Positions 3,255-19,308 of a DNA stretch of 64,000 bases are shown here, one piece after another (within the stretch, counting starts at the first letter, position 1; each line of letters starts with the position of its first letter). The notes under the pieces are model-generated. The model made no database searches, was not told the DNA's origin, and saw only the letters and a program-made list of their open reading frames with translations. Source of the stretch: a phage; sequence record PV730302.1; one strand, written 5' to 3'. The position numbers were made by a program, and so were the translations under genes.

Positions 3255-3533
3255 TTATAGCTTTTTAAGCTTACGACAATAAGAATAGAACACGTCGTTA
3301 AAATTATGCTCAACCCAATTCCTCTGTATAGGCGAGGTAATGGAAAGCATATAATGAGCTTTAATTAAATCCATCCCATTTTTATTAGGACATTCTTTAT
3401 TATTAGCATTATACGTCGCTGCTACAACCTCTATCTCTCTTTTGTAAGCCACATCATCCATGATAGGCGAAAGAACAATATAAGAAATAGCCACAGCGAA
3501 CGCTAGAATTAAAATCTTTGAATTTAGGTCCAT
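3255..3533 (-). CDS. small membrane or secreted protein
   Basis: ORF track 92 aa; N-terminal hydrophobic helix. Confidence 0.45.
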   Translation of the reverse strand: MDLNSKILILAFAVAISYIVLSPIMDDVAYKREIEVVAATYNANNKECPNKNGMDLIKAHYMLSITSPIQRNWVEHNFNDVFYSYCRKLKKL

Positions 3534-3540
3534 AGTACCC

Positions 3541-4113
3541 TCAACTCGTTATTTCTATCCAGTGCTTCCTGCACAATGACACGTAAGAATCGTTGCCACC
3601 TATAGAAACTTGGGCTCCGTCCTTAATTGCAATACCATCTTGGATACGAGCCGTCATAGTAGCTTTACGGCCGCAATGGCACACACCTTTGTACTCAACG
3701 AGTTTATCTGCTGTAGCGAGTAATTCAGCAGAGCCAGGAAACAGTTTACCCTGAAAATCAGTTCTTAGCCCATAGCACATAACTGGAACATTATAATTGT
3801 CTACTATCTTTGCCAGTTGTTTTATCTGTGCAGGTTCTAAGAACTGTGCTTCATCCACAAATACACAGTGGATATCTTTTTGAGATTCAGCCCAACGATA
3901 GAACTCGTATAGGTCCATATCCGGAGTCACGGCATTAGCCTCTTGACTAATCCCTATACGAGACGAAATGCTATGGCTTGATTCTCTATTGTCTATCGCA
4001 GGCTTTAAAAGGAGTACGCCCATACCGCGTTCTTTGTAGTTATGAGCCGCTGTTAGCAATGAAGCGGTCTTCCCAGAATTCATCGCCGCATAGTGAAAAT
4101 AAAGTTGAGCCAT
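3541..4113 (-). CDS. tk: thymidine kinase
   Basis: 190 aa; P-loop MNSGKTASLL, C-terminal Cys cluster CHCGRKA...LCRKH; size matches T4 Tk. Confidence 0.9.
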   Translation of the reverse strand: MAQLYFHYAAMNSGKTASLLTAAHNYKERGMGVLLLKPAIDNRESSHSISSRIGISQEANAVTPDMDLYEFYRWAESQKDIHCVFVDEAQFLEPAQIKQLAKIVDNYNVPVMCYGLRTDFQGKLFPGSAELLATADKLVEYKGVCHCGRKATMTARIQDGIAIKDGAQVSIGGNDSYVSLCRKHWIEITS

Positions 4114-4122
4114 ATTACCTTC

Positions 4123-4329
4123 TTAAAGACTATTTACATAAGCAATTAATTCATTTTCTTTCTCATCAAATCGATTAGCAAATTCTTCCAGATGGTCGGC
4201 ATCTATAGGGCCATATTCATCATAAAAAGAATTTGCTTCTGCATGCTCATCTAGAAGTTCATGGATAAGCTCAAACAATTTATCTTTCTGCTCTTTACTC
4301 AGACTCATAACCATTGTACCTTTAAGCAA
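4123..4329 (-). CDS. hypothetical small acidic protein
   Basis: ORF track 68 aa. Confidence 0.35.
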   Translation of the reverse strand: MLKGTMVMSLSKEQKDKLFELIHELLDEHAEANSFYDEYGPIDADHLEEFANRFDEKENELIAYVNSL

Positions 4330-4517
4330 TATTCTTCAACATGCTGTTTGCGTTTATTTTTATCTATAAAAGTATATTCAACATATTCACCAATATACCA
4401 TTTATCGGTGTTATGTTGACTTTTTATAGGGCATTTAGTTACTCGGGTTTCGGACCAGTGTCGAATAATTTCCGCTTTATTTTTAGGGTCAAACGGATGC
4501 GGGTAATGGGCTTTCAT
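4305..4517 (-). CDS. hypothetical protein
   Basis: ORF track 70 aa. Confidence 0.4.
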   Translation of the reverse strand: MKAHYPHPFDPKNKAEIIRHWSETRVTKCPIKSQHNTDKWYIGEYVEYTFIDKNKRKQHVEEYCLKVQWL

Positions 4518-8896: not shown

Positions 8897-9493
8897 TTAA
8901 TTACCACGGGCTGCATTAGCAACGGCGTAAGCGTACTGAATATTAGCGTCTTTAAACGTACCTTTAGAGGTATCTATTTCTGCCTTAAAGCCGCCTTTAG
9001 CCATAACATCGGCAAATTCTTTACGGAAAGTCATTGCATCAAGACCTTTCCATGTTGATTTGTGCTTGGCAAATTCAAGACCAGCGAAGTTGACAGCCTT
9101 AGCCAATTTATTATCAATAGTCCATTTACCTGCTTTAGGTACAAACACCGGGCCTTTCTGTTTAGAGAACAGTTTTAAATTCCAGCGACGAAGGTCACCG
9201 TCAGCTTTAACAAAAGCTGCGTCCAAGTTACTAGCAACAACATCTTGGATATGGGCAAATTTAAGTCCATCAGCTTCAATATTTAGGTCGTTACGCCAGC
9301 GAAGTCCTTCCCAGGCGAAAGCTTTAAAGTCGGAAGCTTTTGTAGCCAAGTACCGTTCAATAGGAGCTGTTTTAGCGTCAAAACCGTTTCCTGGGTTGTC
9401 AACGCCGTTTCCTTTGTAAGTCCACTCATCTTTATTAATGCCTTGGACCTTTCCTACAGAAGCTTCGGCGATAAATTCTTTATACGTTTTCAT
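8897..9493 (-). CDS. internal-protein-like (CTS MKTYKEFIAE), ipII/ipIII locus
   Basis: 198 aa; CTS at N-terminus; lies between denV and e as ipII/ipIII do in T4. Confidence 0.7.
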   Translation of the reverse strand: MKTYKEFIAEASVGKVQGINKDEWTYKGNGVDNPGNGFDAKTAPIERYLATKASDFKAFAWEGLRWRNDLNIEADGLKFAHIQDVVASNLDAAFVKADGDLRRWNLKLFSKQKGPVFVPKAGKWTIDNKLAKAVNFAGLEFAKHKSTWKGLDAMTFRKEFADVMAKGGFKAEIDTSKGTFKDANIQYAYAVANAARGN

Positions 9494-9575: not shown

Positions 9576-9974
9576 TTATTTGTAGGTCTTCATCCAATTC
9601 TTGAACAAAGCCGCGACGTCTTTCTCTTTAACGTTCAGTTTAATGTCCAACATTTTACCACCGGCAGCACGTGTCTGACGAATCTTAGCAGTACCGGTTT
9701 CGCCATTCCACTCAACATAATACTGCCCAGTGTTCATTGCAATACCATCGCCGTAGTCTTCATTTTTAGAAGTTGTGAAGGCCAGCTTCATAGTCTTAGA
9801 TACACGAGCCTGCATGCCAGTCTGAAGGGCATTACGAACGCGAATAACTTGAGGAGTGGCCTGGGTCAGGTTCTCATTCAGTTCTTCAGTGAACTCTTCA
9901 GATTCAAACATCGCCAAAAGTTCTTTAGATGCAGGAATTACATTCTCTGCGATAAATTCATTATAAGTTTTCAT
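9576..9974 (-). CDS. internal-protein-like ([13 protein letters not shown]), ipII/ipIII locus
   Basis: 132 aa; CTS at N-terminus; immediately downstream of e. Confidence 0.7.
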
Positions 9975-10932: not shown

Positions 10933-11164
10933 CATCGTCTCGTTCCCATGATTGTTTAAAAATATCTTGCATAATAATTTGAAGTCTATTTTCTGATGAT
11001 GGACTTTCACTATCAGACACTTGAAGCATATAGTCACCAATAGGACAGAACATATCCATATCGCTTTCTAAGTCTTCTTTAATTTTCTCTTCTGATGTTC
11101 CGGTATCATAGGAATACAGATAAGAATCACATGACTCAGATTTAATATAAATTGCAATACTCAT
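10928..11164 (-). CDS. hypothetical small acidic protein
   Basis: ORF track 78 aa. Confidence 0.35.
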   Translation of the reverse strand: MSIAIYIKSESCDSYLYSYDTGTSEEKIKEDLESDMDMFCPIGDYMLQVSDSESPSSENRLQIIMQDIFKQSWERDDG

Positions 11165-11748
11165 TTACGGCATTCCTTAATAAAAGAGTTTAATGTATTT
11201 TTCTTAGTGATATCGTCATATACCTTTTTAACTTTAGAAATACGAAAAGGTACTTCGATAACAGAGGTCCATAAAAATGATGCGATAAGACCCAAGATAG
11301 CAGCAGACATCGCTGAAGCGAATACACAAATAGGCAGGTCATTATCTGTTGTCAGGAAAAACCATAGGAGTGGGAAAAATAATATACCCATCCAAACATA
11401 GAATCTAGAACTCACCAATTTGTCGTATTCATCACTCCATGCACGGAAGCCGTATTTTTTGCTATAACAAATCAATGGGTCTGGAGTCTGTTCTTTATGT
11501 GGTTCCGCTTGCCAGCCGTTTACGATATAGCCCATTTTATATTCCTCAATTAAAAGCTGTTTCATTTCGGCAGTACAACCTGACCAATCTATTGTACTGG
11601 CTGAAATTCCTTCATCACCGTCATCGATATTTCGCCAGGACTTTTTAATAATCATAGTCTCACCACTTGGGATAATAATTCCAGCATTTTCCGACCGACG
11701 GATGAAGTTTGTATCAATACCCATACAACCAGGTTCATAAAGGGCCAT
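11161..11748 (-). CDS. membrane protein with C-terminal ...NSFIKECRK motif
   Basis: 195 aa; two hydrophobic helices; C-terminus paralogous to ORFs at 15802-16155 and 16148-16684. Confidence 0.5.
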   Translation of the reverse strand: MALYEPGCMGIDTNFIRRSENAGIIIPSGETMIIKKSWRNIDDGDEGISASTIDWSGCTAEMKQLLIEEYKMGYIVNGWQAEPHKEQTPDPLICYSKKYGFRAWSDEYDKLVSSRFYVWMGILFFPLLWFFLTTDNDLPICVFASAMSAAILGLIASFLWTSVIEVPFRISKVKKVYDDITKKNTLNSFIKECRK

Positions 11749-12437
11749 TACCAGCCCTCCATAGGGAATTCCAGATATACTTGAGCATTAACGCGGATTT
11801 CATTTGTAATCTTTTTAACACGGTCTGTATTACGAGACACACGACCAAACCAGCGCCACCCATTACTTACTGCACGAGAACCTGTATGCCATGTCTGCCA
11901 ATCAAACTGGAGCAACGTGCGGTCAGGAGCATCCCACTTGGTTAATTCATTGGACTCAATTTTTTCCAGAACTTCTTTATGCCACTGGCGATAGATAAGT
12001 TCGCCTTCAGGAATCTGACTGAACTGTGCAGTTCCGGTTGCAAAATGAGTAGGACACACATCAGCATTAACAAGACCAAGAATATGTTCAGAATGGTATC
12101 GAGGATTATCATAATCAGGTTGCCCTGCGGTAATAAAGTGTTGACCCACCGGAATATCCGGGCGTGGTACATCATCATGGTGGAAGCCTGGAATTGCAGG
12201 GTACCAGCCAGGCATTAACATGTGTACACGGGAATCAAATACAATATCAGGGCCACATTGCCAATCTTCAGGCAGGTTTTCAATAAAGCTACGAGTAATA
12301 GGACCACCGTGTTTATGAGCAAAATAAGCATCGCAATTAAAGAACATAGGCTCATTTTTAATCATATCATTACTGATATCTTGAGCAAAACCACCGACTG
12401 CACGAGCTTGAGAATTAAAAGTTTTCGGGCCGTTCAT
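11748..12437 (-). CDS. hypothetical protein (His/Asp-rich, possible metal-dependent enzyme)
   Basis: 229 aa ORF; GFHHDDVPRPD and HSEH motifs. Confidence 0.5.
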   Translation of the reverse strand: MNGPKTFNSQARAVGGFAQDISNDMIKNEPMFFNCDAYFAHKHGGPITRSFIENLPEDWQCGPDIVFDSRVHMLMPGWYPAIPGFHHDDVPRPDIPVGQHFITAGQPDYDNPRYHSEHILGLVNADVCPTHFATGTAQFSQIPEGELIYRQWHKEVLEKIESNELTKWDAPDRTLLQFDWQTWHTGSRAVSNGWRWFGRVSRNTDRVKKITNEIRVNAQVYLEFPMEGW

Positions 12438-12451
12438 AATATTTTCCTCAC

Positions 12452-12666
12452 TTACTTTTTGTTGAAAAAGTACATTTTACCTTTAGGGGATAAGGATACA
12501 CGAAGTGCGTTACCAATACCAACTGAACATTTAACCAGGTCAGCAGATTTCAATTCACCAAATGCTTGACGAAGGTCACCGTCACGAGTGTTAACCATCA
12601 GGCATTTAGCACCAGCTGCACGAACTTCGTTTAACATGTTGATTGCTTGGTTAGAAAGTTTCATTT
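12452..12666 (-). CDS. hypothetical protein
   Basis: start moved to MKLSNQ (SD GGAG 6 nt upstream); early promoter cassette directly upstream. Confidence 0.5.
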
Positions 12667-12690
12667 TATTCTCCATTTCACTCTGTTGTT

Positions 12691-12730
12691 TTGATAGGTC
12701 TATAGTATCACACCTATAGACCTTGTACAC
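12691..12730 (-). promoter_or_regulatory. early promoter/stem-loop cassette (core TTGATAGGTCTATAGTATCA; -35 GTGTAC)
   Basis: inverted repeat GGTCTATAGG/CCTATAGACC; upstream of ORF 12452-12666. Confidence 0.6.
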
Positions 12731-12742
12731 TGTTTTGTGTAA

Positions 12743-13702
12743 TTATTTTTCGAAAGGACGAATTAAATGTTGGTTATCTTGGAAACGCTTGATGTAGTCG
12801 TTTTCACCTAAAGTCTTGTACATATTAACCACCGCTTGGTAGTTTTCCCAGGCGTACTCGCGGAACCAACCTGAAGTGATTGAGGTGCACACTTTCTCAA
12901 GAGCCATATAGAAACTTAATGATGGCGAAATATTAAAGTCATTAGGAACCTGTGAACGTTCTAGTGCCAGGACACAAGTTTCTTCATACACACCGGCCAA
13001 TTTAATAGCTTCAGGCAAAGCTTCAAACTTCTCACGAGAGGTCATGACTTCAGAACCATCCTTCATATAAAAGGTATATGCAGGGCGGCCTGCCAATGCT
13101 ACTGCTTCGTGGATGGAGTCATGGTCCAGCGTATAAATGGTATCATTAAAGAATGATGATTTGTTAACGTCTAATTTAGGGTGAGAATAGCTCAACGTTT
13201 CTTTTTGACGTTGCAGCATAATTTCCTGGAGTTCTTCGTTCAGGGTCACGCCTTTATTACGAAGGTATTTGATGTGGGACATAGTTTTCAAGAAGAACGG
13301 ATTATTCTTAAGGAAACGATGAGAGGTTTTGATAGCCAGACAGATATCAGGGGTTGCCCAATAGAAACCAGTAAGACGGTCCTTTTTAATATGATTTTCA
13401 GCATATTTCAGGAGACGATAGCTTGAAGTGAAATCTTCGTCTTGAAGCTCACCGGTAATTTCTCGTACGTTAGTCAGAGCACGAACGATATAAGCTTCAA
13501 AATAGGTTTCTTTACCATTATGCATACATTTGAAAGCCTGGACATCAGGATTGTCAACGTGTACATGGGCACCAAACATCCGAGCTTTAAAGTGATTCCA
13601 TGAGCCTTGGTCGGCAATGAAATCCCAATCAGAATTTTCGATATGCTTACTTTCAATCAGACCAGCGTGGTGCAGTGCACGAGAACCAATAACTAACATC
13701 AT
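12743..13702 (-). CDS. hypothetical 319-aa protein, possible nucleotidyltransferase fold
   Basis: N-terminus IGSRALHH...SDWDF loosely resembles a GS...DxD motif (spacing atypical). Confidence 0.5.
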   Translation of the reverse strand: MMLVIGSRALHHAGLIESKHIENSDWDFIADQGSWNHFKARMFGAHVHVDNPDVQAFKCMHNGKETYFEAYIVRALTNVREITGELQDEDFTSSYRLLKYAENHIKKDRLTGFYWATPDICLAIKTSHRFLKNNPFFLKTMSHIKYLRNKGVTLNEELQEIMLQRQKETLSYSHPKLDVNKSSFFNDTIYTLDHDSIHEAVALAGRPAYTFYMKDGSEVMTSREKFEALPEAIKLAGVYEETCVLALERSQVPNDFNISPSLSFYMALEKVCTSITSGWFREYAWENYQAVVNMYKTLGENDYIKRFQDNQHLIRPFEK

Positions 13703-13715
13703 AATATTTTCCTCA

Positions 13716-13883
13716 TTAGTAGAGACGAGTTACTTCATATTTACCTAGTTCAGATTTTTTTGCTTCAATACGCGTGGCGGCGAGATTAGCGGCCTCTAGT
13801 GAAGAAAATTGAACCACTTGTGAAGTATTCTGCCTTACGCCACCTTGTGGGTGAGTAACAAAAACAATAAGAACATTATACAT
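13716..13883 (-). CDS. hypothetical small protein
   Basis: internal start MYNVLIV with SD GAGGAAAA upstream. Confidence 0.35.
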   Translation of the reverse strand: MYNVLIVFVTHPQGGVRQNTSQVVQFSSLEAANLAATRIEAKKSELGKYEVTRLY

Positions 13884-13902
13884 AATATTTTCCTCAGATA
13901 AC

Positions 13903-14142
13903 TTAAATTTCGGCAACGTAAGTGTTATGCAATTCCCACATATCATCAGAATTGCTCTTAATGATAGGGATTATCTCATTAGAGATTTCTTCAGCATAAG
14001 GGTCATTGATACAGTGGGCATCTTCAAAACGAACACCGTAATCAGACTTCTTATAGGCAAAGCCATAAATCTTTTTAAACTTGGCACGGGTAATGCGTAC
14101 CGGTTCATTAGACTTATCAGACAACGGAGAGTAATACCACAT
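13903..14142 (-). CDS. hypothetical protein
   Basis: ORF track 79 aa. Confidence 0.4.
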   Translation of the reverse strand: MWYYSPLSDKSNEPVRITRAKFKKIYGFAYKKSDYGVRFEDAHCINDPYAEEISNEIIPIIKSNSDDMWELHNTYVAEI

Positions 14143-14185
14143 ATGTTCTCCTCATGTTTGTGTAGGGTAATAGTAACACGTATTT

Positions 14186-14536
14186 TTAGAGTTGTACATC
14201 ACTTCTGCAATATTCTAAAAATAATTTATCGTTGTCTACCGTATCCCAACGACGCCAAGATGGATTCCAGACCAAAGCGTTGTCACCACAATCATTGAGC
14301 TTAAAATGGTCGTAGTACATAGCTATACGTCTAGTTTCGTCACCAGAGAACCCCAGTATAGGCTCGCCGTGGGTGTGATACATATGATGGTGCATTGAGA
14401 GGTCGCATTTGTAAAACATCTCACGTTTACCACGAACGAACAAGAAGGCTTGCCCATTCATATAGAATTCTTTATCTGTTTTCAAAAGATATTTGAATAC
14501 TGAATCTTTATGCATAAGTCCTCCTACCACATCCAT
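14186..14536 (-). CDS. hypothetical protein (His-rich HHHMYHTH segment)
   Basis: ORF track 116 aa. Confidence 0.45.
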   Translation of the reverse strand: MDVVGGLMHKDSVFKYLLKTDKEFYMNGQAFLFVRGKREMFYKCDLSMHHHMYHTHGEPILGFSGDETRRIAMYYDHFKLNDCGDNALVWNPSWRRWDTVDNDKLFLEYCRSDVQL

Positions 14537-14545
14537 GTGGTTAAA

Positions 14546-14773
14546 TTATTTTCCTAACGAAACACGAGTAGGTTTTTTACCAAAATAGTCTTCGTAAGAA
14601 CCATCTAAACGGCCTGCTTTAGACCGACAATACGAATCATACTTTTTGTAATAAGTCATCTCGGTATTATAACGTGGGTGTCTATCAGCCATAATAATAC
14701 TTAACGGCCAACCTTTGGCATAATCGCGAAGACCATTTATTTTACGAATGTATCTTTTCTTTAATTTTAGCAT
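14546..14773 (-). CDS. hypothetical basic protein
   Basis: ORF track 75 aa. Confidence 0.4.
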   Translation of the reverse strand: MLKLKKRYIRKINGLRDYAKGWPLSIIMADRHPRYNTEMTYYKKYDSYCRSKAGRLDGSYEDYFGKKPTRVSLGK

Positions 14774-14991
14774 GAGCTCGGATACCAGATTTTACCATCG
14801 GCCTGAGCAACGAAGGTGCGACCAGCTTCTTCACCATAACAAGAGCTATTCAGCCAATCTTCGAGACGAACTTCACCGTCATAATCATCGAGCTCAACAC
14901 CGAAATCCTGGGCAGAAGCCATATCTTTTACTTTCTTATACAGTGCAGCCAGTTCAAGAGCAGCTTTTTCTAATTCATTAATATCAGACAT
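14767..14991 (-). CDS. C-terminal-Cys family small protein, member 4 (ends WYPSSC)
   Basis: start set at MSDINELEK; shares N-terminal helix, central aromatic/Gly motif and terminal W-x-SS-x-C with three upstream paralogs. Confidence 0.55.
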   Translation of the reverse strand: MSDINELEKAALELAALYKKVKDMASAQDFGVELDDYDGEVRLEDWLNSSCYGEEAGRTFVAQADGKIWYPSSC

Positions 14992-15001
14992 TTTTATTTC
15001 C

Positions 15002-15214
15002 TTAGCAAGACATAGAAGAAGTAAACCAGAAACCATCACCATCAGGAATGCCGTAATCATCACGGACCCATTCATAATCATCATATTCCGGGTTCTTTGG
15101 AGAAATGTATTGTCCACGACCAGAAACATGGAACTCTTCACCCGTTTCGTCAGCCACAGACTGGCCTTTACGTACTAATTCACGGATTTGGTTTTCAATT
15201 TCATCAATAGTCAT
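15002..15214 (-). CDS. C-terminal-Cys family small protein, member 3 (ends WFTSSMSC)
   Basis: ORF track 70 aa; paralog. Confidence 0.55.
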   Translation of the reverse strand: MTIDEIENQIRELVRKGQSVADETGEEFHVSGRGQYISPKNPEYDDYEWVRDDYGIPDGDGFWFTSSMSC

Positions 15215-15223
15215 TTTATTTCC

Positions 15224-15505
15224 TTAACATTCAGAAGAAGAGGACACCCAACCACCATTTTCTAGGCTGGTAGTGTAATCATGTTGGTTTACAATAGCGT
15301 ACTGAGCTTCACCGTATTCTTCCCAGTGGGCAAGGTCGGCTTTCAAGGCGCCAGGAGAATAATAGTCACCGCCCATACCGCGAGCAGGGTATATATTAAA
15401 ATGAGTCTCATATTTGTTTGCAATTTCCTCGGCACGACGAATAGCTTTATGGATATCATTTACTGCTTCAGCCAATTCTTTATTTTTATGGTAATCATTC
15501 ATCAT
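15224..15505 (-). CDS. C-terminal-Cys family small protein, member 2 (ends GWVSSSSEC)
   Basis: ORF track 93 aa; paralog. Confidence 0.55.
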   Translation of the reverse strand: MMNDYHKNKELAEAVNDIHKAIRRAEEIANKYETHFNIYPARGMGGDYYSPGALKADLAHWEEYGEAQYAIVNQHDYTTSLENGGWVSSSSEC

Positions 15506-15514
15506 AGCGTTTCC

Positions 15515-15805
15515 TTAGCACATTGCCGAAGAGGAGATCCAAGCACCAACTGTAACGACGCCATTTTCAACTTCACCACCGTTGTTTTCAATTTCATCTT
15601 TAAACCACTGGGAGCATTCATAACCGACAGGATAATATGTACGGCCTGAACCATAATCACCGGTACCGAATTGGATACCATACTTATCGGCAATAGCTTC
15701 ACATTCATGTTCGATGGTATTCACTTTATTCAGAAGAGCATAGATAGCCTTTTCTGCAGATTTCTCGTCATTGTGTTCCGGGATTTCAATTTCAATTTTA
15801 TTCAT
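15515..15805 (-). CDS. C-terminal-Cys family small protein, member 1 (ends AWISSSAMC)
   Basis: ORF track 96 aa; paralog. Confidence 0.55.
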   Translation of the reverse strand: MNKIEIEIPEHNDEKSAEKAIYALLNKVNTIEHECEAIADKYGIQFGTGDYGSGRTYYPVGYECSQWFKDEIENNGGEVENGVVTVGAWISSSAMC

Positions 15806-16155
15806 GATTTACATTCCTTAATAAAGGTTTCAAGGTCATTACGTTTAGTTTGTTTTACATACTCATTATAATTAGCCATAGCTAAAGCATATCTCTTTTT
15901 ACGTGGCTTGTTTATTTTATTAGTTTGGGCAATATCAAAGACCCATGGGATAAAAAATCCTATTAAAGCCGGAACCCAAATCCATGCAAGGCTCATATCT
16001 TCAAACGGATGGCGAGGCATACCATTAATAATCCCACCGACAAGAAATCCAATTATCCCTGCAGTCATACTAGTAGCAATGCCGAGGAATAAGGAAATAG
16101 CTATATCATAATCTGCTAATGCGTAACCAGGGTCGGTTTTACTAGGCTTATGCAT
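15802..16155 (-). CDS. membrane protein with C-terminal ...ETFIKECKS motif
   Basis: start set at MHKPSK (SD AAGAGG upstream); TM helices; C-terminus paralogous to 11161-11748. Confidence 0.5.
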   Translation of the reverse strand: MHKPSKTDPGYALADYDIAISLFLGIATSMTAGIIGFLVGGIINGMPRHPFEDMSLAWIWVPALIGFFIPWVFDIAQTNKINKPRKKRYALAMANYNEYVKQTKRNDLETFIKECKS

Positions 16156-16684
16156 TTTGAACCTCTTTAGCGTATTCGCGACATTCAGCAATAAAACGAT
16201 TAAGCTTACGTTGTTGTTTACGACTTTCTAATGTGTACTCATTAGCCAAAATAATAAGCTCATCTTTATCGTAATTTTTAATATCAGAGTAAGATGGGCG
16301 ACGGTCAACCATTCCAAATACATCACCATTTTCTAAAGCTACATAACATACTAAATGGTAATCATCGTCTGCCATATTAAGAAGCACACAATCAGCGCTC
16401 TCGTTTAAAGAATATACCGAATAACGTAGTCCAGCGAATTCCACTCGTTGAATAGCCAGATTTACGTCAATAATTTCCAAAGCATCTTCAAAAGAAAGGT
16501 CTTCAGCTAAAGCAAAAATAAAAGGTAATTTGGTAGTATCGCCACGGCTAGATGTTCTGCTTAAGAAATCGTTTGAATAGCCTAGGTCTTGGCGAATTCT
16601 ATAAAGAACTGAATTAGTTTCATGTGAAAGACCACTATGCTTAAACCAATCAATATTTGATATCAGGTCGTCATATAAACTCAT
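16148..16684 (-). CDS. hypothetical protein with C-terminal ...LNRFIAECREY motif
   Basis: ORF track 178 aa. Confidence 0.5.
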   Translation of the reverse strand: MSLYDDLISNIDWFKHSGLSHETNSVLYRIRQDLGYSNDFLSRTSSRGDTTKLPFIFALAEDLSFEDALEIIDVNLAIQRVEFAGLRYSVYSLNESADCVLLNMADDDYHLVCYVALENGDVFGMVDRRPSYSDIKNYDKDELIILANEYTLESRKQQRKLNRFIAECREYAKEVQNA

Positions 16685-16707
16685 AATATTCTCCTCTCCT
16701 CCAAATA

Positions 16708-16725
16708 GGGAGACCGAAGTCTCCC
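16708..16725 (-). terminator. UUCG-tetraloop hairpin GGGAGAC-UUCG-GUCUCCC
   Basis: perfect 7-bp stem just downstream of ORF 16733-17326; identical hairpin follows gene 23 on the plus strand. Confidence 0.5.
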
Positions 16726-16732
16726 AGTAACA

Positions 16733-17326
16733 TTACTTAAGTGAATTAATGTAGTCTTCGATATCAGCAGAAGTCGTATCCATTCCAACTTGTGGGCCTT
16801 TAAACGTTTCTACACGAAGCAGGGTGTCTTCAATATCAATCTTAGTCAATGCAGCGATTTCAACAACATCATCGGCAGTAGCAATACCCAGGGCAGCCAT
16901 ATTACGAGTTTCACGAATGTACTCAAGCTTAACCGCTAGTTCCTGGCGAGAGTCATCAAGTTCCTTGACCTTAAGCTTAATTTCATTACGCATTTCAACA
17001 TAATCATCGGCTTTCTTACGAAGTTGAGTAGCCGTACGACGATAAAGGAGGCCGAGTTTAGCATGTACCTGGACATCGGCACCTTCTTTAATCAGTTTAC
17101 GAATTTCGCGTTCTTTGGAACTAGCCAGTTGGTCCTTTTCGTTAGCGAGTTCACGAATACGTTTTTCTTCATTCACAGACTTAACATGGGCAGTCTGGAG
17201 CTCAGTGATTTTATCAATCAGAGTAGAAGCAGCTTTGGTGTATTGGTCTTCGATTGACAGGTTCTGAGCCATTGCAGTACCCAATTTGGAACGGATGAAT
17301 TCAACGATTTTCTTTAAAGTGTTCAT
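16733..17326 (-). CDS. coiled-coil protein (possibly PspA/IM30-like)
   Basis: 197 aa; heptad-rich charged sequence throughout. Confidence 0.5.
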
Positions 17327-17350: not shown

Positions 17351-17399
17351 TTTATAATCCATGAGGACATTATACCCTGTCCTCTGAGGGTTGTAAACA
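17351..17399 (-). promoter_or_regulatory. early promoter (GTTTAC -35, TATAAT -10) with flanking inverted repeat GAGGAC/GTCCTC
   Basis: read on minus strand; upstream of ORF 16733-17326. Confidence 0.6.
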
Positions 17400-18843: not shown

Positions 18844-19308
18844 TTATTTGATTTGTTTAGCAGACCAGATACGGTCTTTGATGATTTTCTGAATATCTTC
18901 AACATACTCTAAGTCGTGAGCATGCGGATTATCTTTGAAGCTATGTGCTCGTGCTAGTTTCTGGCCTTCTGTTTTGATTACTAAAAGCTCTTTAAGAATT
19001 GCTTCATACTTAGAAATAATTCCTTTGGCGATATTTTTTTCTTGAGCGGCTTTAGGGTCTGCTTTTGTAGCAGGTGCTTTACCTGTAGCTTTCTGGAACA
19101 ATTCACCTGATGCAGCTAGGCTTTTAAAAACTCGGCTAACAGTATTAGCATTAGTAAAACCTTCGGCTTTAAAATCTCTAATAAAACGGAAACGTTCTTC
19201 ATCAGAGGCGTCTTTGTAAGAATATTTACCTGCTTGAATTGCTGCAATCGCAGCGGCTTTTACATCTGAACTAGATTGTTCAGTCAAAAATTCATTGTAA
19301 GTTTTCAT
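18844..19308 (-). CDS. internal-protein-like (CTS MKTYNEFLTE)
   Basis: 154 aa; N-terminal CTS-like decapeptide. Confidence 0.65.
   Translation of the reverse strand: MKTYNEFLTEQSSSDVKAAAIAAIQAGKYSYKDASDEERFRFIRDFKAEGFTNANTVSRVFKSLAASGELFQKATGKAPATKADPKAAQEKNIAKGIISKYEAILKELLVIKTEGQKLARAHSFKDNPHAHDLEYVEDIQKIIKDRIWSAKQIK

Follow-up and report, generated by a model that had tools for sequence, protein, structure and literature searches.

The DNA analysed in this work is a stretch of 64,000 nucleotides from the phage sequence record PV730302.1 (the window), which belongs to a Dhakavirus, a T4-type phage of the JS98/Bp7/WG01 kind, and shares 97% DNA identity with phage 04086. Between 9 and 19 kb every real gene lies on the minus strand, the order being e (lysozyme), nudE, an open reading frame (ORF) of 78 amino acids, ORF A, eleven genes, ORF B, ORF C and e.6. 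The genes of this cluster are tightly packed or overlapping (ORF C overlaps the start codon of B by 8 nt) and stand behind an early-type promoter; in the T4 record L13089 the -35 and -10 signals are annotated at the equivalent place before msp3, that is e.6. The region corresponds to the T4 block e.2-e.6 (msp7 to msp3), with A and B as the homologs of e.2 and e.3 and C as the positional counterpart of e.5. It differs from T4 in holding, between e.2 and e.3, about 4.6 kb of additional genes, in having an extra soluble bearer, ORF D, and in lacking an e.4-type gene. Our subject is a short peptide at or near the C-terminus of A, B, C and probably D, here called the tail, which recurs on otherwise unrelated proteins encoded downstream of e.6, a gene whose product resembles PspA and Vipp1.

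Table 1. Features of the tail-bearing gene cluster, in coordinates of the window
Feature	Coordinates	Strand	Description
ORF A	11161..11748	-	195 amino acids; T4 e.2 homolog; predicted cytoplasmic N-terminal domain, hairpin of two transmembrane (TM) segments and tail
Tail motif of A, LNSFIKECR (L186-R194)	11167..11193	-	from translation
ORF D	14186..14536	-	116 amino acids; soluble; phrog_9796; probable fourth tail bearer
Tail core of D, FLEYCR	14204..14221	-	from translation; next start codon more than 40 nt downstream
ORF B	15802..16155	-	117 amino acids; e.3-like protein with two TM segments, both termini predicted cytoplasmic
Tail motif of B, LETFIKECK	15808..15834	-	from translation
ORF C	16148..16684	-	178 amino acids; soluble; T4 e.5 positional counterpart, directly after e.6
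Tail motif of C, LNRFIAECR	16178..16204	-	from translation; nine further residues after the motif
e.6 homolog	16733..17326	-	197 amino acids; phrog_1203; PspA/IM30/Vipp1-like (ESCRT-III superfamily); candidate tail partner
Early-promoter-like site, TTTACA-17-TATAAT	17369..17397	-	upstream of e.6; 11/12 consensus matches

An earlier note on this DNA had described A, B and C as membrane-protein paralogs with a common C-terminal FIKEC motif. Translation confirmed the positions and C-termini that it gave for the three ORFs, all of them on the minus strand: A ends in ...KKNTLNSFIKECRK, B in ...KRNDLETFIKECKS and C in ...RKLNRFIAECREYAKEVQNA. The shared tail is real, but its conserved core is F-I-x-x-C-R, within the consensus phi-x-x-[FYW]-[IV]-x-x-C-[RK] (phi, a hydrophobic residue), and the E of FIKEC is not conserved. 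The tail closes A and B as claimed, whereas C runs on for nine residues past it. One bearer had been missed: ORF D, which ends in ...KLFLEYCRSDVQL (...DNDKLFLEYCRSDVQL), matches the regular expression given below and scores 10.2 bits with a hidden Markov model (HMM) of the tail (E 0.018 in the local ORF set), is probably a fourth, and the weakest, member.

The proposed paralogy did not hold. Pairwise BLASTP among A, B and C aligned only 14-22 tail residues (E 2e-4, 8e-3 and 1e-2), and the comparison of family profiles aligned only 17-26 columns (E 2.5e-6 for A-B, 1.4e-4 for C-A and 3.4e-4 for C-B). Because the similarity, in the alignment of C-termini that the earlier note had proposed as a check, goes past the pentapeptide but stops at the tail, the bearers are not whole-protein paralogs, as judged from sequence, and the tail is a module. 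With the tail masked, the bearers split into more than 20 unrelated phmmer clusters, which comprise large soluble proteins, proteins of about 100 amino acids with two TM segments, e.2-type proteins and small soluble proteins.

The distribution of the tail was followed in e.6-anchored loci sampled from Mosigvirus, Jiaodavirus, Karamvirus (two phages), Winklervirus, Marfavirus, Pseudotevenvirus and Muldoonvirus, from a Providencia phage and from an Aeromonas phage of another subfamily. At nearly every locus one to six ORFs just downstream of e.6 end in [FYW]-[IVL]-x-x-C-[RK], and the residue at position -3 before these tails is usually hydrophobic. When the regular expression [FYW][IVL]xxC[RK] was sought in the last 32 amino acids of same-strand ORFs, it was present in 37 of 419 ORFs (12 genus-level loci) against 0.78 expected from shuffled termini, an enrichment of about 45-fold; outside the cluster it matched only thymidine kinase (YVSLCRKHW) and one dubious short ORF. 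The 15-column tail HMM gave the bearers 9-21 bits and everything else less than 6 bits, with the exception of one borderline unclassified ORF of phage VP8 (9.2 bits). The N-terminus of e.6, considered as a possible likeness of the tail, scored less than 5 bits and was rejected as such, and a search with a 43-amino-acid tail alignment in a collection of 5.8 billion proteins gave no matches.

When all six frames of the complete T4 genome were scanned (802 ORFs), the tail HMM recognized only e.5, e.3 and a fragment of e.2. T4 e.3 ends in ...MKEFVIDCRKIK and T4 e.5 in ...LEKFVKECREYVKAITIPSK, and T4 e.4 carries a shifted variant, FVKESRC. The fragment is an unannotated ORF of 36 amino acids, MFIEMPWRLR...NLNNFITECRKLK (phrog_35580), located at 67472-67582 on the minus strand of T4 (NC_000866) between e.2 and nudE and overlapping the start of nudE. 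It is the detached C-terminal tail of a split e.2, whose annotated part (102 amino acids) is only the 5′ part and ends in the first TM segment, whereas in the window e.2 is intact.

By the Kyte-Doolittle method TM segments were located at residues 116-134 and 138-156 of A and at 22-40 and 55-73 of B, in agreement with the paired hydrophobic helices that had been noticed in these two proteins (for B they appear also in an AlphaFold model); the same method found no TM segment in C and D. The idea of a common cytoplasmic tail on divergent small proteins is correct, and the tail is under selection, but C and D are soluble. In A and B the two hydrophobic segments are separated by a short loop and the C-terminal regions are strongly basic, which places both ends of each protein in the cytoplasm. 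The AlphaFold model of B (predicted local distance difference test, pLDDT, 82; helices 18-44 and 57-116) shows the second TM segment running unbroken into a cytoplasmic helix of about 43 residues, of which the motif forms the final turns, and a fold search of this model among viral predictions returned only uncharacterised proteins of T4-like phages.

ORF A falls into phrog_2203 (E 1e-71), matches T4 e.2 in phmmer (E 1.7e-13) and is annotated as e.2 in Bp7, while B falls into phrog_2330, matches T4 e.3 (phmmer, E 7.7e-7) and has only 8 relatives among 1.84 billion representative proteins; both homology and the position between e.6 and nudE assign the two proteins to the e.2/e.3 families of T4. 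ORF C belongs to phrog_8788. A direct phmmer match to T4 e.5 was not obtained, and C is tied to the e.5-position family by intermediates, a common YS..LN motif, the tail and a weak match to phrog_2607. A His-rich stretch at residues 44-56 of D, CDLSMHHHMYHTH, suggests metal binding. PHROGs placed A-D only in families without known function, and searches of Pfam, NCBIfam, PADLOC, PDB sequences and Rfam gave nothing useful for any of the four.

In 12 of the 13 sampled Straboviridae lineages the gene immediately after e.6 encodes a tailed e.5-type protein. The pair is kept in Pseudotevenvirus EC-W1, where it lies in an nrdD/nrdG neighbourhood, and in Aeromonas phage avDM6 (gp31/cd/pseT neighbourhood) e.6 is followed by two tailed e.5 paralogs; the surrounding genes of these two phages are entirely different, yet the association persists. 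Comparison of these loci identifies e.6 and a soluble tailed protein as the conserved core pair across Straboviridae subfamilies, with the soluble e.5 type as the oldest and most widespread bearer, and such a pair points to a membrane-maintenance module rather than to exclusion. In the window e.6 and C (16148-17326, minus strand) stand in the same reading frame, with one TAA and 16 sense codons between them, which is probably a coincidence.

The e.6 gene (phrog_1203) is present in more than 1100 phage records, and the product encoded in the window is 75% identical to that of T4. Most phage records annotate it as 'hypothetical' or 'host specificity protein'; one GenBank record labels it 'shock protein A'. 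When a profile of 13 e.6 sequences was searched against PDB sequences, the four best matches were Synechocystis Vipp1 (E 4e-5 to 1e-4), with an in-register alignment that extends from residue 1 to about 145, and yeast Snf7 came next (E 0.06). The Pfam family PspA_IM30 (PF04012) was matched by 2 of the 13 e.6 members (best E 4.2e-4, with unrelated coiled-coil families scoring similarly), and the e.6 of the window gave no match to it even at E up to 10. An hhalign comparison of e.6 with Vipp1 plus E. coli PspA aligned 171 columns in register (E 7.7e-4), though with a probability of only 25%. HHpred homology to PspA has been reported for a phrog_1203 protein of a Kuttervirus, for which an anti-abortive-infection role was proposed (PMC9409062). 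On these profile matches we regard it as likely that e.6 belongs to the PspA/IM30 superfamily.

Within the families of bearers conservation is concentrated in the tail. In the e.5-position family (13 sequences from 10 genera, 13-22% identical) only Met1 and the tail Cys are invariant, the F and R of the tail being nearly so; in the e.2 family (six lineages) the tail supplies three of the five invariant residues, namely I190, C193 and R194; and in the e.3 family 17 homologs, with identities down to 50%, do not differ in their last ten residues. The codons at the conserved positions vary between genera (TGT 18 and TGC 15; CGT 9, AGA 10, AGG 5 and CGA 3), and this free variation suggests that it is the peptide, rather than the DNA, that is under selection. 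Now and then another residue stands in for the Cys, in most cases V, I or M and more rarely S or K, with F-I and R retained (Cys-less tails include FVKEVRRK, FIKNVRRK, FIRGIRS and LQFIREVR), and the predominance of hydrophobic substitutes fits a packing interface. The residues phi(-3), F(0), I(+1) and C(+4) have the i, i+3, i+4, i+7 spacing that brings them together on a single helix face; in A and B the helical hydrophobic moment is greater than that of shuffled sequences, in C it is borderline (6%), and in D it is not greater.

Other elements of the cluster accompany the tail-bearing genes. An ORF of 229 amino acids at 11748-12437 (minus strand, phrog_1843) and another of 319 amino acids at 12743-13702 (minus strand, DUF7277 and DUF7275) lie inside the cluster and are kept in Mosigvirus, Karamvirus and Winklervirus, though not in T4. 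A translation-initiation cassette of 16 nt, TGAGGAAAATATTATG on the coding strand, is repeated at 12435-12450, 13700-13715, 13881-13896 and 16682-16697; three of these four sites are starts of listed ORFs, and the cassette is also present in other genera. Four small tandem ORFs of phrog_899 occupy 14767-15805 on the minus strand (15515-15805, 15224-15505, 15002-15214 and approximately 14767-14991) and all end in W-x-(S)SS-x(0-2)-Cys-stop (AWISSSAMC, GWVSSSSEC, FWFTSSMSC and IWYPSSC). In Mosigvirus, Karamvirus, Winklervirus and a Providencia phage, too, members of this second family of the cluster with a conserved C-terminal cysteine lie scattered among the FIxxCR genes.

Terminal address peptides on unrelated cargo are exemplified by the capsid targeting sequence MKTYQEFIAE of the T4 internal proteins and by the cargo-loading peptides of encapsulins. 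The tail is comparable to them in that it is a short conserved helix at the end of proteins of one virus that are otherwise unrelated, and it shares with the capsid targeting sequence a superficial E-F-I-x-E resemblance. The latter is, however, N-terminal whereas the tail is C-terminal; the Glu, which is needed for cleavage by gp21 (I/L-x-E site), is not conserved in the tail; the capsid targeting sequence scores less than 3 bits with the tail HMM; and half of the tail bearers are integral membrane proteins, which could not be packaged. The tail was rejected as a capsid targeting sequence on these grounds. Internal-protein-like genes that do start with this sequence, in the form MKTY(K/N)EF(I/L)(A/T)E, occur in the window at 8897-9493, 9576-9974 and 18844-19308, all on the minus strand.

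Several explanations of the tail have to be weighed. It might be a by-product, with 3′ gene ends spread by partial duplication or recombination in a hyperplastic region and kept because they overlap the next gene's ribosome-binding site and start codon, without any shared function of the peptide itself. The K-E codons AAG GAA of A and B do make up a Shine-Dalgarno sequence that precedes the next ATG by 9 nt, the stop codon there overlaps the start codon, the two genes have 14 identical nucleotides, the synonymous divergence of the tail is lowered within Dhakavirus, and T4 retains the e.2 tail fragment over the start of nudE though its e.2 is split. The 14-nt stretch is, however, the only DNA that A and B share and long DNA repeats are absent, so that a recent DNA duplication was rejected. 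The motif (its Cys codon) lies 7-109 nt from the next start codon in all cases but one (a 1-nt overlap); the tails of C and D overlap no Shine-Dalgarno sequence, the core of D being too far upstream of the next start; and the x-x positions that would encode such a sequence are the variable ones. For these reasons a ribosome-binding site or translational coupling cannot explain the motif and accounts only for the K-E/K-G of A- and B-type genes. The F, I, C and R are fixed as amino acids while their codons vary between genera, and in three families the tail residues are the most conserved ones although overall identity is only 13-22%; an origin as a by-product is in our judgement improbable. We give similarly little credit to an explanation by cysteine chemistry, in which the Cys next to Arg or Lys would be shared by subunits as a metal or Fe-S ligand, act as a redox switch or be covalently modified. 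It would suit a Cys that is the sole invariant residue besides Met1 in the e.5-position family and invariant in e.2, the basic residue that always follows it and the nearby His-rich stretch of D. Yet several bearers keep F-I and R with V, I, M, S or K in place of the Cys, in T4 e.4 the Cys is shifted, a second conserved ligand is lacking in B and in most e.5 proteins, and the spacing of the conserved residues suits a helix-packing face.

The earlier note had taken the membrane bearers for accessory genes of superinfection exclusion or immunity, with the tail as their common cytoplasmic signature. They are small, early-transcribed inner-membrane proteins encoded in a non-essential, variable region, and in this they are like Imm and Sp, the small early membrane proteins of T-even phages. 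No evidence for such a role was found: the bearers have no homology to Imm or Sp and no matches in Pfam, NCBIfam or PADLOC, and BLASTP of B against T4 Imm gave only a match of 25 hydrophobic TM residues. The tail is carried also by soluble proteins, half of the bearers, and among its bearers the oldest and most widespread, the e.5-type protein beside the PspA-like gene, is soluble. To our knowledge, Imm and Sp share no C-terminal motif, nor is a shared tail a recognised hallmark of exclusion proteins, and we hold this assignment to be very doubtful. Chance or compositional similarity is practically negligible: the BLASTP E-values of 2e-4 to 1e-2 would not survive correction over all ORF pairs of the window, but the tail is enriched about 45-fold, confined to one gene cluster genome-wide and invariant within families across genera. 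The tail could also serve as a docking peptide for a host factor, or in homo-oligomerisation, with no connection to e.6, so that the bearers would be effectors acting on one host protein or site. The conservation of the peptide, its modularity and its cytoplasmic location fit this equally well, and e.6-like genes can occur without tailed neighbours, as in Serratia phage IME250. The tight and ancient pairing of e.6 with the e.5 tail survives the change of gene neighbourhood, for which a functional link is the simplest explanation, and Pfam and NCBIfam revealed no resemblance to a host motif; such a role is rather unlikely.

The occurrence of otherwise unrelated membrane and soluble bearers after a PspA-like gene makes the tail probably a docking peptide rather than a mark of paralogy or immunity. 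The reading which we favour, tentatively, is that it is a short cytoplasmic docking or assembly helix by which membrane anchors as well as soluble partners would be tied to a PspA-like module of the phage. The analysis shows the motif with its enrichment and confinement to the cluster, its conservation as a peptide, its cytoplasmic and helical nature, the linkage to e.6 and the likeness of e.6 to Vipp1/PspA, whereas binding, the identity of the partner and the physiological role are inferred. The tail is a cytoplasmic amphipathic helix with phi(-3), F, I/V and C on its hydrophobic face, followed by R/K. By means of it the e.2-, e.3- and e.4-type membrane proteins, whose two termini are cytoplasmic, and the soluble e.5- and D-type proteins would all bind one partner. 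The likeliest partner would be the adjacent e.6 protein, the alternative being that the bearers bind each other, and the outcome would be a phage-encoded module for maintenance or remodelling at the cytoplasmic face of the inner membrane.

Bacterial proteins of the PspA family are brought to the membrane, or regulated there, by small membrane partners: PspC's cytoplasmic domain at the C-terminus binds PspA (PMC5596341), and LiaI recruits LiaH (PMC7619361). The phage module might work in an analogous manner. As in the Psp and Lia systems, a PspA/IM30-family gene is followed by small inner-membrane proteins in one operon, and B, according to its model, has cytoplasmic ends and a C-terminal cytoplasmic helix as PspC has. 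Unlike those systems it is phage-encoded, A and B have no detectable sequence relation to PspB, PspC or LiaI, and several interchangeable partners, soluble ones included, would share one short motif, an arrangement not described for Psp. By this analogy A and B may work like Psp partner proteins; they are not members of their families.

A number of results weigh against the docking of the tail on a PspA-like e.6 protein. The match of e.6 to Vipp1 is remote (26 bits on a coiled-coil-rich sequence), the hhalign probability is low, as given above, and E. coli PspA itself receives no score from the e.6 profile. The tail was rejected as a PspC-like sequence, the tail HMM giving E. coli PspC only -0.2 bits and not reporting PspB, and A and B had no match to the Pfam/NCBIfam models PspC (PF04024), PspB and LiaI-LiaF-TM at E up to 0.1. 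The linkage has its exceptions: Providencia phage PSTCR6 has e.6 and no e.5-type gene, and in Serratia phage IME250 (Ackermannviridae), where an e.6-like gene lies outside Straboviridae (locus 3333-4511), the product of the following gene (177 amino acids) has an N-terminal TM segment and lacks the FIxxCR tail, so that a co-transfer of e.6 and tail into Ackermannviridae was not seen in this phage. The AlphaFold model of C (pLDDT 42, from an alignment of 31 sequences) is unusable. Within Dhakavirus the synonymous divergence of the nine tail codons is about half of that in the rest of the gene for A and C and zero for B and D, which indicates that some constraint at the nucleotide level also exists.

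The bearers are already known as hypothetical proteins, and one publication has remarked on the PspA-likeness of phrog_1203. We found no literature on the function of e.2-e.6 or on this motif, and no description of the shared tail or of its tie to a PspA-like gene. We know of no function assigned to T4 e.2 to e.6 since their sequencing. Viruses are absent from a broad survey of Psp partners (PMC11237479).

In at least three T4 e-families and about 20 others, all encoded behind a PspA/Vipp1-like gene, no feature is better conserved than one short peptide, and with it a block of hypothetical T4 genes becomes one testable module. The motif provides a simple handle for mutagenesis, pull-downs and annotation. 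It is conceivable, though still speculative, that T4-like phages have their own PspA/ESCRT-III-like inner-membrane system, in which e.6 would be the polymer and the tail a modular address tag by which interchangeable membrane anchors (e.2, e.3 and e.4 types) and soluble proteins (e.5 type) would plug into it, with a possible role in keeping the membrane energised during infection or in countering depolarising defences. If the tail docks on e.6, this would be a viral version of the Psp/ESCRT-III membrane-repair machinery with plug-in partners, and it would bear on how lytic phages maintain the host membrane and evade abortive-infection systems that collapse the proton motive force.

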